From: Candidatus Heimdallarchaeota archaeon
Lineage (GTDB): Archaea; Asgardarchaeota; Heimdallarchaeia; Heimdallarchaeales; Heimdallarchaeaceae
Direction of reading: 5' to 3'
Length of the DNA stretch: 64,000 nucleotides
Assembly: GCA_030603365.1 (NCBI GenBank)
Contig: JAUVXV010000001.1
Location: 480,001-544,000, forward strand
Part shown: one piece after another, positions 10,295-14,525 of the stretch
Layout: each line of letters opens with the position of its first letter
How positions within the stretch are numbered: the first letter of the stretch is position 1
The notes under the pieces: model-generated
Seen by the model: the letters and a program-made list of their open reading frames with translations, nothing else
What the model was told of the DNA's origin: nothing
Database searches by the model: none
Made by a program: the position numbers and the translations under genes

Positions 10295-11011
10295 CTAATT
10301 ATAAGTTGTTTTATCAATGTGATTTGTTATTTCATCTTCATAGATGTCTACTCTCACATCATTCAGATTTAATATTTCATTATTTACCCATTTTGTTATC
10401 ATTTTAATGTTTGAATTTGTGGGTTGAGTTTCTCTGTATTCTAAGTCAATTGAACCATTTCTGTTAACAAATAGGTGGACTTGATTATCATCACTATCTT
10501 TCCAACACAATTTGATTTGATCTTTTATTGTTCTTTTGTAGAGAAAACGGAAATCACCAAACCATCTTCTTTCAAGGATAGAACTTATTTCTTCCTGATC
10601 TAAAGGTGGTATTGTTCTGATTTTTTGCCATTTTGAGCTATAATTGGTGTCTTGTACATTTACCGCTTTAGCATTTAAAAGATCCTTAATTAGTGATTTA
10701 GTATATCTGCTTCCAGCATGTGTTAATTCATATGTTCCATAGTTGTTTTTTAGCAAATATTTTCTGTCTTGCAATCTTTTCAAAGCTTTTGTAAGTTGAT
10801 GCTGGTGAAGCGTTGTAGTTTTTCTTAATCCTGAAAAACCATATAAAATATTTGAATCTGATAATGCAAGTAACAATTGAACCTCGGGTAATGTCATATA
10901 ATCATATTCTGTACTGTAGAAATAATCATTTGGCAAATTATCTAATTTTAAACTATTTTCATGTGTCTGTTTAAAACTAGAGAACTCATGATACCATTGG
11001 TCCATATTCAT
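10295..11011 (-). CDS. Winged-helix (MarR-like) domain protein
   Basis: FSGLRKTTTLHQHQLTKALKRLQDRKYL..GTYELTHAG. Confidence 0.65.
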   Translation of the reverse strand: MNMDQWYHEFSSFKQTHENSLKLDNLPNDYFYSTEYDYMTLPEVQLLLALSDSNILYGFSGLRKTTTLHQHQLTKALKRLQDRKYLLKNNYGTYELTHAGSRYTKSLIKDLLNAKAVNVQDTNYSSKWQKIRTIPPLDQEEISSILERRWFGDFRFLYKRTIKDQIKLCWKDSDDNQVHLFVNRNGSIDLEYRETQPTNSNIKMITKWVNNEILNLNDVRVDIYEDEITNHIDKTTYN

Positions 11012-11111: not shown

Positions 11112-12857
11112 TTATTCCTCTGAAGATGTATCATCTGAATCAGGATCTATTGATGCAGATGTTGGGTGCAAATACACTTCTCCTTCAAGAATAGTATATG
11201 GAATTCTTCTTTCATCAATCCATGGAGCCCCATCTCTAAATTCTTTGAACATATCATTACTCACTATCATGGCCTCTTCCTCTTCAGCTAAGCGAAGAAT
11301 GAATTTATCTCCATCTACTCTAGCAGGAAGCATCTTTATGGCTCCTTCTCTCACAAGTTGATCTAATCTCTTCTGTTCATCGATTTGATATCTTAAAGCT
11401 GCATCAGCAACAGTTATTATTTTCTTGAAATTCGCTCTACTCAATCGATTTATCATTGATTCAACATTAGCAATTTTTGGCTTATTTGACAAGCTCTTCT
11501 CTTCCCATGCAATATTTGATCCATCCAGAATTACCGTTTCAAAAGGATATCTTAGTTCGGGGAAAATTCTTGTTCTAGAAATCTGTGTTCTTTTTGCTAT
11601 GCCTAGAAAAATATCTCTAGAAAAATAAGCTAACCCTAAAAGTAGTGCTGTAAAAATAATTCCGTATATAATTTGCTCTGTTTGTAACGTATCAAGATTA
11701 GGTTCAATAGGAATAACTGATACTTCTTGAAATCTCGTTAAGAGTAAATTAGAATACCATTTTGTTTCTGCTATAGTAGTCCATTCTAAATCTATTGTGA
11801 AAAATAATGCAACAGCTCCAGAGATGATTGGGTTTCCGATGACTGATAAATAGTTTTTACCTGAGATTGCCCTTGTTGAATCTTCAATCCCCTCAAATTC
11901 TATATTATCACAATCAACTATTGGTAAAACATATAACGTAACACCTTCATTATTCGTTATTTCATATTCAATCAAGTATTCTTCTCCCATTGTTACATTA
12001 ATGGGTAGATTCCAGACATCAATCTCTATCTCTGGCATAACAATGATTTGTAGTGTATCACTTTCCGTTACTTTTTCAGTTTCTGGATCATCTACTGTTT
12101 TATAAGTAATGGTAAAAGAGTGCTTCTGATAGAGAAAAGTATCTGGATAGAACCCAATATAATCTGAAAAGCTTTCTCCCCCCTCTATTTCTAGATTAGA
12201 TATTAAGATTGCCCAAGTAACAGAACCTGTTGTACCTGTTTTCGTTATTTCATTTGTGACGGTAACATTTGTTGCCTTTGTTTCACCCGTGTTGGAAATT
12301 ATACAAAAGACCTCATTATTCTGTTCTCTTTCAAGATAAACAGGATTAATAGGGAAAAACATTCTTAACCTTCCAAAAGGAAGAACGGTCAGTTCAAATG
12401 TTGATGAGGCATTATATGTTTTTGATGTTGTACTATTTGCAAAAGCGGTGACTGAATAATTACCGGCGTCTTGACCATTGAATGTGGGCCAAGGAATGGT
12501 TTGGTTGAAATATCCTGTTTCTGTATCATTTAGAAGTATTGTATTCTCATAAATTATTTCAACTGACGGATTTGTAATGTTAAAAAAGATATACGAATCA
12601 GGGATATATGATTCGTTTTCTTCATATGTGTACTGAAATAATATTAGTAGATCATCTTCTCCTCTAGTTAGAGCCGTTGTGTTTAATTCCATGACAAATG
12701 TAGCATTTTCGAGAGTATGAAAAATCGGTTGAAATAGATTGTCTATAGGAGGTTCTCTTGCTTCAGTTGGCAGAGTTGCAGGATTCAATAAAAGAGATAT
12801 AAAAGCGATTCCTACTATTAAGCTGAAGACACTACTCTTCATTGACCTCCTGTACAT
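11112..12857 (-). CDS. Type I membrane protein: signal peptide, Ig/CARDB-like ectodomain, TM, cytoplasmic NYN (Zc3h12a/Regnase-like) RNase domain
   Basis: Signal (..LLLNPATLPTEA); many NxS/T sequons; ISNTGETKATNVTV (CARDB-like); TM IIYGIIFTALLLGLAYF; VILDGSNIA, ADAAL, DGDKFIL, IVSNDMFKEF. Confidence 0.85.
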   Translation of the reverse strand: MYRRSMKSSVFSLIVGIAFISLLLNPATLPTEAREPPIDNLFQPIFHTLENATFVMELNTTALTRGEDDLLILFQYTYEENESYIPDSYIFFNITNPSVEIIYENTILLNDTETGYFNQTIPWPTFNGQDAGNYSVTAFANSTTSKTYNASSTFELTVLPFGRLRMFFPINPVYLEREQNNEVFCIISNTGETKATNVTVTNEITKTGTTGSVTWAILISNLEIEGGESFSDYIGFYPDTFLYQKHSFTITYKTVDDPETEKVTESDTLQIIVMPEIEIDVWNLPINVTMGEEYLIEYEITNNEGVTLYVLPIVDCDNIEFEGIEDSTRAISGKNYLSVIGNPIISGAVALFFTIDLEWTTIAETKWYSNLLLTRFQEVSVIPIEPNLDTLQTEQIIYGIIFTALLLGLAYFSRDIFLGIAKRTQISRTRIFPELRYPFETVILDGSNIAWEEKSLSNKPKIANVESMINRLSRANFKKIITVADAALRYQIDEQKRLDQLVREGAIKMLPARVDGDKFILRLAEEEEAMIVSNDMFKEFRDGAPWIDERRIPYTILEGEVYLHPTSASIDPDSDDTSSEE

Positions 12858-12961
12858 TTAGTGCACTTCTATTTTATTATTCAATATAATATTTTTTCTT
12901 GGTTTAATAAGTTTAACGTGAGTTAGTAGAATTTTCCACCTGTAATCAGAAAAAAACTTAG

Positions 12962-13293
12962 TGAACGATGCGAAAATACCCCTGATTCTGTTTGGAAGCC
13001 GTCAAGGACCTTCCGGGCAACATTCATCTAAGCACTTTACCCAGTTCATATGAACTCTACTTAAGCTTGCTCCTCGATGATTGACCGTTTCAGCGGTTCC
13101 TATATCCTCCTCAGCAAATTATCTCTAGAAGTGTCACCACTCTATTCATCGCATCATTGTCTCTGAATATAGGTCGTATCGTTTCTGTTCCAAGAGCCAT
13201 ATTCTCATATGGTGGATTTACATCCACATCGATTTTATTGGAGTCAGGAGGTTCCTCAGCTATAAGCCGATAGTTGCCTTTTCGCTTCGCTCA
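12962..13293 (-). ncRNA. rnpB: Archaeal RNase P RNA
   Basis: Minus strand: GAGGAACCUCC, AACAGAAAC, CUGAAACGG, GGAGCAAG, AACAGAAUCAGGGGUAU. The ends pair as P1 (UGAGCGAAGCGAAAA / UUUUCGCAUCGUUCA); T-run follows downstream. Confidence 0.92.
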
Positions 13294-13358: not shown

Positions 13359-14525
13359 TTATATTACTTTCATGCTCTTACCAATTTTTTCCATGGTTTC
13401 CAAAATGAAATCTATTTCGTCTTCTGTATGGGTTGCCATTACACAGCAACGTAATCTTCCAGCTTCTCTTGGAACTGCTGGAAATACTATTGGAGGAACA
13501 AGAATCCCTTCCTTTTTCATTTTCTTAGCATAACGAAAAGTTTTGATGTCATCTCCTATAATTACAGGAACAATTGGTGTATCTTTACTTCTCAATGTGT
13601 TATAACCCATTTCTTTTACTCCATTAATGAAATAGGCATAATTCTTTTGAAGTGATTTAATCAATTCTTTGTCAGTTTCTATAATTTCCAGAGCTTTTAA
13701 TGATACAGCAGCACACATTGGTGGAAGTGCTGCACTAAAAACAAAAGCATTTGATGTAAATTTTAGGTATGTAATGACTTCTTTTCTAGCTGCTATATAT
13801 CCACCTATAGAAGGTATAGCTTTGCTCAATGTCCCCATATAAATGTCAACTGCACCAGGTTTAAGATCAAAATAATCATCAACACCTCGTCCATTAGGAC
13901 CAACTGTCCCGAGAGCATGAGCTTCATCCACCATAGTAAAAGAATCATGTTGTTTAGCAATTTCTATTATTTCAGGCATTGGAGCTATATCTCCATCCAT
14001 ACTAAATACACCATCAACTATCACCAGAACGCGTTTATAGTTTGAACGATTTTCCTCTAATACCCTTTCCAAATCACCAGTATCATTATGGTTGAATCTT
14101 TTCCAGTCTGCTTTCGATAAAATACACCCATCGTATATACTTTGATGGTCATATTTGTCAATAACAATAAGATCATCCTTACCAAAGAGTGTAGATATTA
14201 AAGTCATGTTTGTAACATATCCACTACTATAGACAATTGAATCTTCTGTTCTTTTAAAATCAGCAATTTTTCTTTCTAACTGTTCATGTATATCAGCTGT
14301 TCCAGTAAGTAATCTTACTCCTCCTGCACCACTACCATATTTATCTAAAGCTTCATGAGCTACTTTGAATATTTCAGGATGTGAAATCAATCCCAAATAG
14401 CTATACGATCCTAACATCAGAAGTTCTTGATTACCGATAGTAACTTTATTTGAGGCTACTCCTTGAATAGGTAACATGTAAGTCATTAAACCAAATCTAA
14501 CAAGATTTTTCTCCCTAGCTAACAA
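13359..14525 (-). CDS. PLP-dependent alpha-oxoamine synthase (AONS/KBL/serine palmitoyltransferase family)
   Basis: GSYSYLGL, GSGAGGVRLLTG, HQSIYDG, DGVFSMDGD, VDEAHALG, GTLSKA (PLP Lys), FSAALPP. Confidence 0.9.
   Translation of the reverse strand: MLAREKNLVRFGLMTYMLPIQGVASNKVTIGNQELLMLGSYSYLGLISHPEIFKVAHEALDKYGSGAGGVRLLTGTADIHEQLERKIADFKRTEDSIVYSSGYVTNMTLISTLFGKDDLIVIDKYDHQSIYDGCILSKADWKRFNHNDTGDLERVLEENRSNYKRVLVIVDGVFSMDGDIAPMPEIIEIAKQHDSFTMVDEAHALGTVGPNGRGVDDYFDLKPGAVDIYMGTLSKAIPSIGGYIAARKEVITYLKFTSNAFVFSAALPPMCAAVSLKALEIIETDKELIKSLQKNYAYFINGVKEMGYNTLRSKDTPIVPVIIGDDIKTFRYAKKMKKEGILVPPIVFPAVPREAGRLRCCVMATHTEDEIDFILETMEKIGKSMKVI

Follow-up and report, generated by a model that had tools for sequence, protein, structure and literature searches.

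The 64,000-nucleotide stretch analysed here—the window in what follows—comes from Candidatus Heimdallarchaeota archaeon, a member of the Heimdallarchaeaceae (assembly GCA_030603365.1, contig JAUVXV010000001.1, positions 480,001 to 544,000). In it an uninterrupted open reading frame (ORF) of 581 codons encodes P0001, a single-pass membrane protein resembling a surface glycoprotein, with an apparently intact Zc3h12a-type NYN nuclease as cytoplasmic tail (Table 1). The initial annotation, made from the letters alone, had described this very order—signal sequence, glycosylated immunoglobulin (Ig)-like ectodomain, single transmembrane (TM) segment, Zc3h12a-type NYN domain—and it is borne out by Pfam, by hydropathy and by an AlphaFold2 (AF2) model. 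The enzyme domain of P0001 is thus a known one, but the architecture in which it stands, which we call TM-NYN, is undescribed.

In eukaryotes, NYN RNases of the Zc3h12a type are familiar as soluble proteins, which regulate immune mRNAs and act as effectors against viruses. Here a Regnase-type nuclease forms the cytoplasmic output of a surface glycoprotein that is conserved within one order of the Heimdallarchaeia, reported to be the Asgard class nearest to eukaryotes. The annotation did not recognise the architecture as described, and the searchable literature agrees: a full-text search returned no paper that links Asgard archaea with Regnase-type RNases or describes a TM-NYN receptor; the two sets of terms meet only in one listed paper, which records a soluble Zc3h12a-like NYN orthologous group in methanogens. 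In databases the homologues are named only “NYN domain-containing protein” or “hypothetical protein”. A survey of the PIN superfamily counts 23 archaeal members of PF11977 and leaves the prokaryotic ones without function (“Unknown function in bacteria”); the accessible part of this survey does not mention an ectodomain-TM-NYN architecture (PMC5499597).

PF11977 (RNase_Zc3h12a) is the sole Pfam family found in P0001 at E <= 1. It matches residues 440-562 (E 5e-17; 62.5 bits, the cut-off being 23; model positions 3-139 of 154), and in a whole-genome search P0001 is its single match in the 3.65-Mb genome, with 65.8 bits; a search of P0001 against NCBIfam returned no family. Our profile A2, built from 30 NYN domains, matches ZC3H12C, ZC3H12B, ZC3H12A and KHNYN over the whole domain, with E values from 3e-12 to 4e-10, and also PRORP2 (E 3e-6). 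The AF2 model was computed from a 26-sequence alignment (mean pLDDT, the per-residue confidence, of 76) and compared exhaustively by VIA-align with 48,161 PDB chains. For residues 436-573 the top match is ZC3H12C (7ndj_A; Z 13.1, root-mean-square deviation (rmsd) 3.0 Å over 137 residues, 23% identity), and PRORP1 comes next (4g23_A, Z 11.0).

P0001 thus shares its Pfam family and its fold with Regnase-1/MCPIP1, ZC3H12B-D, KHNYN and N4BP1, at a sequence identity of about 23%. The differences are nevertheless large. The eukaryotic proteins are soluble, whereas in P0001 a signal sequence and three Ig-like domains, followed by a TM helix, come before the NYN domain; Regnases carry a CCCH finger after the PIN domain, whereas P0001 ends 16 residues after its NYN domain, and these residues are acidic, with no Cys/His motif and no zf-CCCH match in Pfam. 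Two insertions of 8 and 6 residues found in the eukaryotic proteins are missing. The nearest relatives of this NYN domain outside the TM-NYN family are short soluble prokaryotic proteins (33-39% identity), not eukaryotic ones, and P0001 does not outscore other prokaryotic members in Pfam, which gives no indication of a special ancestor-descendant link to Regnases. We take the domain for a PF11977 member whose centre is plausibly active, and not for a Regnase orthologue.

The prediction of an active centre comes from the alignment with Regnase-1, whose numbering we take from ZC3H12A 3v32_B (chain index + 111 = UniProt). Residues D445, N448, P511, R513, G516, D517, S533, D535 and E539 of P0001 correspond respectively to D141, N144, P212, R214, D225, D226, S242, D244 and D248 of Regnase-1, so that every aligned position but G516 holds the Regnase-1 residue or a conservative replacement. 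The by-eye alignment of the initial annotation thus stands for DGSN (445-448, in ILDGSN), DGDKFIL (515-521) and SNDMF (533-537), and fails at one point: D225 has no Asp counterpart, since it falls on G516. In the family alignment (26 members) these motifs, together with DAA (485-487), and the aligned residues are invariant, S533 being kept in at least 90% of the sequences. The order alignment (22 members, 23-28% overall identity) is more demanding: D445, N448, D517, N534 and D535 are still invariant, P511 and E539 nearly so; Ser and Thr alternate at position 533, and position 513 mostly bears Arg or Lys. D485 and D515, the latter two residues before D517, are further invariant acids. The key residues of the domain are accordingly D445, N448, D485, D515, D517, S533, N534, D535 and E539. 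In Regnase-1, D226 and D244 are the residues changed in the inactive DDNN mutant, and P212A and R214A abolish dimerisation of the PIN domain as well as activity (PMC4772114). At the position of R214 a basic residue, Arg or Lys, is typical of the TM-NYN clade, whereas soluble relatives have Gly.

The Gly at the position of D225 is what one might expect if P0001 served at the surface or in adhesion and its NYN-like tail, being non-catalytic, did no more than bind RNA or a protein partner, and the likeness of the ectodomain to adhesin, S-layer and CARDB-type Ig arrays goes in the same direction. However, the other catalytic positions are kept across the order, and the equivalent of D225 is also missing in most soluble prokaryotic NYN relatives; its absence is therefore normal in the prokaryotic branch and does not denote decay. 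We hold a tail devoted to binding to be highly improbable, and infer from the retained residues that P0001 cuts RNA.

Kyte-Doolittle hydropathy gives two hydrophobic segments in each of 26 homologues, at about residues 9-28 and 394-415, in line with the signal peptide and the one TM segment of the initial annotation. The first segment of P0001 has the composition of a signal peptide: a basic n-region (MYRRSMK), a 15-residue h-region (about residues 9-24), then N-P and further on TEA, whose Ala would suit position -1 of a cleavage site. An uncleaved anchor with its N-terminus inside is the alternative; whichever of the two it is, the C-terminus is predicted to be cytoplasmic. The second segment is followed by the basic stretch KRTQISRTR, in agreement with the positive-inside rule. 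Besides, N-glycosylation sequons (N-x-S/T) are unevenly distributed along the protein. We count 11 in the ectodomain, close to the ten or so noted in the initial annotation, where composition-preserving shuffles give 5.1±2.0; the cytoplasmic part, of 166 residues, has none. Across the family the ectodomain bears 9-17 (4-7 expected), and 0-2 fall in the cytoplasmic part. Of the sequon positions, ten are common to at least 13 of the 26 homologues, N93 and N141 being invariant, and a gene for the STT3/AglB oligosaccharyltransferase is found in the same genome. Because of the sequon excess in the ectodomain, the lack of sequons in the cytoplasmic part of P0001 and the basic residues after the TM segment, the RNase most probably faces the cytoplasm, residues 34-393 being placed, indirectly, outside the cell. 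An extracellular NYN domain, an outcome with which the initial annotation had reckoned, is thus disfavoured by both the sequon distribution and the positive-inside rule.

In the AF2 model residues 50-385 are all-beta and form three sandwiches (pLDDT about 90), in keeping with the beta-rich ectodomain of the annotation; a helix spanning residues 388-424 is predicted to cross the membrane, and the NYN domain has a pLDDT of 57-77. VIA-align delimits the sandwiches at about residues 51-158 (D1), 160-274 (D2) and 274-385 (D3). D1 superposes on the MG2 domain of alpha2-macroglobulin (2p9r_B; Z 12.1, rmsd 2.1 Å over 96 residues), and D1-D3 jointly align with the macroglobulin-like (MG) domains MG2-MG4 of C3, C5 and TEP1 (Z 11-12.7). 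Foldseek, run with the whole model against PDB, gives only generic tandem Ig-array matches with low TM-scores, and language-model look-alikes in the ESM Atlas are weak leads (0.85) to archaeal CARDB/NPCBM_assoc surface-protein clusters. The likeness stays at the level of the fold: no match to PF07705, PF10633 or MG-domain families was obtained from Pfam in the ectodomain at E <= 1. On this model the ectodomain would be a generic Ig/MG-like stalk, whose fold gives no specific hint of a ligand. Most sequons of P0001 (9 of 11) are on D1, the family mean being 8.0 of 11.5; they form a dense glycan cap at the tip of the ectodomain, which includes the sites at 12411-12413 (residue 149) and 12591-12593 (region of residues 89-93), on the minus strand.

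A word-indexed search returned 62 clusters, nearly all of 555-650 residues with PF11977, the few shorter ones being partial or apparently truncated. Those with a name come from metagenome-assembled genomes (MAGs) of Heimdallarchaeaceae or Heimdallarchaeota, down to 41% identity in Candidatus Heimdallarchaeum aukensis. With the NYN domain as query, phmmer found 1132 matches among 1.84 billion representatives. Among the top 31 (E < 1e-30) six are shorter fragments; those that are complete begin with a hydrophobic segment, bear 10-15 sequons and have a TM segment about 40 residues before the NYN domain; below these come short soluble proteins (130-300 residues, 33-39% identity) and other fusions. 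A chimeric fusion or a misassembly was considered and is ruled out, as the layout recurs in about 60 clusters (at 90% identity) and in 31 representatives (at 50% identity), closed genomes of 3.1-3.3 Mb included.

The search of Asgard proteomes that the initial annotation had proposed was run over 400 genomes and found proteins of this layout in the Heimdallarchaeales only. Far from being absent from all relatives, as the annotation had cautioned might be the case, the fusion is carried as a full-length homologue by 39 of the 46 genomes of the order, distributed over its families as 26 of 30 (Heimdallarchaeaceae), 1 of 1, 2 of 3 and 10 of 12. The four Heimdallarchaeaceae genomes without a match are 79-90% complete. 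Elsewhere in the 400 genomes, other Heimdallarchaeia included, no full-length homologue was found, and matches concern the NYN part alone. Most genomes of the order have one full-length match; one (G010) has two full-length paralogues, and some have extra matches to fragments or soluble NYN proteins. Mean pairwise identity within the family is 84% for the NYN domain and 45% for the ectodomain, and falls at the level of the order to 53% and about 21% (20-22%) respectively. As the ectodomain is homologous throughout the order at this low identity and still displays invariant residues, it is likely to be functional rather than a relic.

The NYN tree has to be read with some caution: it is a quick IQ-TREE analysis of 153 domains with few columns and many unresolved forks, and includes no eukaryotic sequences. 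All TM-NYN proteins with three Ig-like domains nevertheless form one clade (SH-aLRT 99). A second type of ectodomain fusion is represented by P0175/P0223, from a Promethearchaeota MAG: like P0001 it is an Asgard protein with an ectodomain, a single TM segment (about residues 422-440) and a C-terminal PF11977 domain, but the ectodomain is a PQQ-type beta-propeller (PF13570/PF13360) and its NYN domain branches far off, among soluble forms. Because the propeller protein branches apart from the three-Ig clade, its fusion appears independent, and the ectodomain-TM-NYN layout would have arisen at least twice. Short proteins made of an N-terminal TM segment and a NYN domain, with no ectodomain, are also present (P0185, P0127, P0102, P0145), and several branch elsewhere in the tree. 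Taken as they stand, these sequences suggest that this NYN type is placed at the membrane several times over, and behind a large ectodomain at least twice.

Two metagenomic proteins of 891 and 909 residues, P0108 and P0153, combine sub-threshold N-terminal matches to STAND/AAA_16 (E about 1e-4) with a C-terminal PF11977 domain, and have no PADLOC match; such a layout would resemble that of conflict systems. With the propeller and STAND/AAA_16 fusions, the NYN type so appears to serve repeatedly as output domain for modules that are sensor-like or oligomerise. Short soluble NYN ORFs (165-240 residues) occur in many other Asgard genomes (e.g. G319:C1:1129952-1130383 and G372:C13:13271-13699) and match P0001 from residue 412. 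As the match takes in the juxtamembrane linker, this linker may be the N-terminal extension of an ancestral soluble NYN protein.

The architecture, its conservation and the retention of the catalytic residues are established by these comparisons, and the topology indirectly. How the enzyme might work we can propose only tentatively, and the explanation that we favour—RNA cleavage at the membrane by P0001, coupled to the cell surface and dependent on clustering—stands in our opinion just short of an even chance. A Sec-type signal sequence would export the three tandem Ig/macroglobulin-like domains, the distal one bearing most of the N-glycans, and the TM helix, with a basic linker of about 25 residues, would hold the predicted-active NYN endoribonuclease at the inner face of the membrane. 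Isolated NYN domains would be poorly active and would cut RNA once neighbouring molecules meet, in the manner of Regnase-1 with the head-to-tail dimerisation that its PIN domain undergoes. A ligand, contact with the envelope or with another cell, or surface stress might then cluster the molecules laterally or reorient the ectodomain and the TM segment and so set the RNase activity, by which the cleavage of RNAs near the membrane would be linked to conditions at the cell surface. That clustering exerts the control, and that nearby RNAs are the targets, we infer; an extracellular signal might in this manner gate the RNase.

The logic of the layout is that of IRE1, in which a lumenal sensor, a TM segment, a kinase and a KEN RNase follow one another and the RNase is switched on by oligomerisation. 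IRE1 and P0001 both join, through one TM segment, a sensor-like domain beyond the membrane to an endoribonuclease in the cytoplasm. However, PF11977 being the only family found, P0001 has neither kinase nor KEN domain; its RNase fold is PIN-like, and three Ig-like sandwiches replace the lumenal fold of IRE1. The annotation, which had drawn this comparison while calling the RNase domains unrelated, was fair on both counts.

Several observations speak for a control by the ectodomain: the ectodomain and its glycosylation sites are kept across the order; a second, independent ectodomain-TM-NYN fusion exists, and the NYN type is also found behind STAND NTPases; the residues of the Regnase-1 dimer interface are kept, including the basic position of R214, which is suggestive at most. 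A homodimer prediction for the cytoplasmic domain (two copies of residues 425-572) scored 0.00 and weighs neither way. In the strongest form of the proposal P0001 would be a true outside-in receptor ribonuclease, the binding or clustering of its glycosylated three-Ig ectodomain, whether by a ligand, by contact between cells or with the envelope, or by a virus, driving the head-to-tail association of NYN domains and RNA cleavage at the membrane; this we regard as rather unlikely. If it were true, the logic of IRE1 and RNase L would have been realised on a PIN-fold nuclease and invented at least twice in Asgard archaea, with three Ig-like domains and with a beta-propeller. Any control of the RNase by the ectodomain would make P0001 the first prokaryotic receptor-RNase with an IRE1-like logic, and would open a direct route from the cell surface to the fate of RNA that dispenses with transcription factors.

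Other observations weigh against a surface-coupled enzyme. The mostly single full-length copy, the vertical inheritance and the contrast between an NYN domain at 84% and an ectodomain at 45% identity would fit a constitutive enzyme equally well. Sensor families usually expand and diversify, which the TM-NYN family does not. The short relatives with an N-terminal TM segment (P0185, P0127, P0102) suggest that tethering alone can be the selected feature. Besides, the predicted metal site is not identical to that of Regnase-1, with Gly516 in place of D225, and the NYN part of the AF2 model is only of moderate confidence.

One may thus consider P0001 as a constitutive, membrane-tethered enzyme of RNA decay or processing, for example in the turnover of mRNAs translated at the membrane, the ectodomain being only an anchor or a spacer. 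We judge this unlikely too, although much would fit: the gene belongs to the core of the order, in which it is nearly universal and present mostly in one full-length copy per genome; its neighbours are housekeeping genes (rnpB, proteasome alpha and beta, an aminotransferase) and its G+C content is native; purifying selection is very strong over the whole NYN surface (84%); anchoring of NYN domains to the membrane recurs with no ectodomain (P0185, P0127, P0102, P0145), and no defence family is matched. On the other hand a single TM segment would suffice for such an enzyme, yet a 340-residue ectodomain of three domains with conserved glycosylation sites is kept order-wide, and a propeller ectodomain has been fused to TM-NYN independently in another lineage. 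Moreover the gene was found neither in other Heimdallarchaeia nor in other sampled Asgard genomes, which speaks against a general housekeeping need of archaea.

The known enzymes closest to this idea are bacterial. RNase Y is held by an N-terminal TM anchor and RNase E by a membrane-targeting amphipathic helix, their catalytic domains being of the HD/KH and S1/DNase I-like types respectively. Like P0001, they are endoribonucleases at the cytoplasmic face of the membrane, encoded by core genes that are mostly single-copy; unlike P0001, they have no large extracellular domain, and their catalytic domains are unrelated to NYN. Archaea are not known to have RNase E or RNase Y; P0001, if constitutive, would give them a membrane-localised RNA decay enzyme of a new kind.

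The initial annotation had also suggested an antiviral abortive response, in which the ectodomain would sense virus contact or envelope damage and the NYN domain would degrade viral or host RNA. Three points would agree with it: related NYN domains are fused to STAND/AAA_16 NTPases, an architecture typical of conflict systems; the ectodomain evolves much faster than the RNase domain; and the eukaryotic PF11977 proteins—Regnases, KHNYN, N4BP1—restrict viral RNA. Of the roles that the annotation put forward it is nevertheless the one that fits least, P0001 being encoded by a vertically inherited core gene of native G+C in housekeeping surroundings. Against the defence models of PADLOC-DB 2.0, P0001 matched 0 families at E <= 0.01; there is no defence island, the distribution is not patchy, and the gene is not mobile: mostly in one full-length copy, it keeps its chromosomal position in 21 of 21 family loci. 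An all-against-all comparison of neighbours at 14 loci revealed no gene family that accompanies TM-NYN across families, and so no conserved gene of immunity, antitoxin or partner type; at the genus level its neighbours are an alkaline phosphatase and a MOFRL/DUF4147 protein. With no PADLOC match, no island, no partner gene and a fixed position, a classical or mobile defence module is unlikely, and we consider an antiviral sensor of any sort improbable. Around the gene the G+C content is 0.32-0.35, as elsewhere in the window; together with the fixed chromosomal position this rules out a horizontal island, which we had considered.

The neighbour next upstream is the archaeal RNase P RNA gene (rnpB), which the initial annotation had placed, on the same strand, about 105 bp upstream of the TM-NYN gene; the distance is 108 bp. 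The arrangement is found in 21 of 21 Heimdallarchaeaceae loci of four genera, with a spacing of 76-162 bp on the same strand (in one locus the start codon is ambiguous), and it holds down to 41% protein identity while the other flanks vary. This constancy could denote a function tied to RNase P, in the maturation or turnover of its RNA or in the 5' processing of tRNA. PRORP (PF16953) is placed by the PIN-superfamily survey in the same structural group of PIN-like nucleases as PF11977 (PMC5499597), and the matches to PRORP2 (E 3e-6) and PRORP1 (Z 11.0) were mentioned above. The likeness extends, however, to the nuclease-core fold and profile only: PF16953 is not matched by P0001, which has no pentatricopeptide repeat (PPR) or zinc-binding module, and a membrane-anchored glycosylated protein fits RNase P oddly. 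RF00373 has no match next to the homologue at any of the 10 sister-family loci that keep the protein (0 of 10), so that an order-wide functional linkage to RNase P RNA is ruled out.

The intergenic region is also in disfavour of such a tie. An oligo-T stretch follows rnpB directly, and the alignment of the 21 family loci reveals a conserved TATA-like element, AAACTTATTAAAC, 45-59 nt before the ATG, and a Shine-Dalgarno-like AGAAGTG (AGAAGTG/GGAGGT across loci) 7-13 nt before it. These we take as a predicted terminator, TATA box and Shine-Dalgarno sequence; read in this way, they make TM-NYN probably its own transcription unit. A role bound to RNase P has in our view very little chance of being the right one.

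Table 1. Features of the TM-NYN gene, its product P0001 and the adjoining region, with positions in the window.
Feature	Residues	Position	Strand	Basis
Whole ORF, TM-NYN protein P0001	1-581	11112..12857	-	
Signal-peptide-like N-terminus	1-33	12759..12857	-	hydropathy of 26 homologues; alignment
Ectodomain beta-sandwich D1, membrane-distal, 9 of 11 sequons	50-158	12384..12710	-	AF2 pLDDT ~90; match to 2p9r_B
Ectodomain beta-sandwich D2, invariant N189-x-G191 motif	160-274	12036..12380	-	AF2 model; PapD/ASH-like 6fvi_A, Z 10.2; order-wide columns
Ectodomain beta-sandwich D3, membrane-proximal	275-385	11703..12035	-	Z ~9-10 to Ig-like/MG domains
TM helix, ending in family-invariant Y-F-S-R-D	394-415	11613..11678	-	alignment; hydropathy; AF2 helix 388-424
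Basic juxtamembrane linker (…GIAKRTQISRTRIF…), low pLDDT	416-439	11541..11612	-	positive-inside rule (predicted cytoplasmic)
Zc3h12a-type NYN (PIN-like) nuclease domain	440-565	11163..11540	-	Pfam; profile; structure comparison; family identity
Short acidic, variable C-terminal tail, with stop	566-581	11112..11162	-	sequence; Pfam; alignment
Intergenic region with promoter-like elements		12858..12965	-	sequence; alignment of 21 family loci
Shine-Dalgarno-like AGAAGTG		12864-12870	-	alignment
TATA-like element		~12902-12916	-	alignment of 21 family loci
Oligo-T right after rnpB		12950-12956	-	terminator-like
Archaeal RNase P RNA gene (rnpB)		12966..13289	-	RF00373, 163.5 bits

Downstream of the TM-NYN gene a 238-residue protein, psmB and psmA follow in the four loci compared (the window, L002, L004 and L005). 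The first of these, at 10295-11011 on the minus strand of the window, sits between the TM-NYN gene and psmB/psmA and has no Pfam match beyond a faint likeness to MarR/HTH_45; it accompanies the proteasome genes in Heimdallarchaeaceae and in one genome of a sister family (L022), and is inverted in L002, which is close to Candidatus H. aukensis. On the other side, between rnpB and a PIG-L gene, lies a class I/II aminotransferase of 388 residues (13359-14525, minus strand; PF00155, AONS/SPT-like), found likewise in L004 and missing at the corresponding place in L002 and L005. In L002 a Cas12f1-like/TnpB fragment (PF07282; L002:5227-5547) lies just upstream of rnpB; the rnpB-TM-NYN pair is intact there, and the upstream flank is variable. 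Finally, on the same strand and 0.1-1.3 kb upstream of the homologue, three loci belonging to two sister families (L021:180-2024, L024:2340-4157 and L026:7600-9465) encode a protein of about 610 residues with sub-threshold N-terminal PIN matches.

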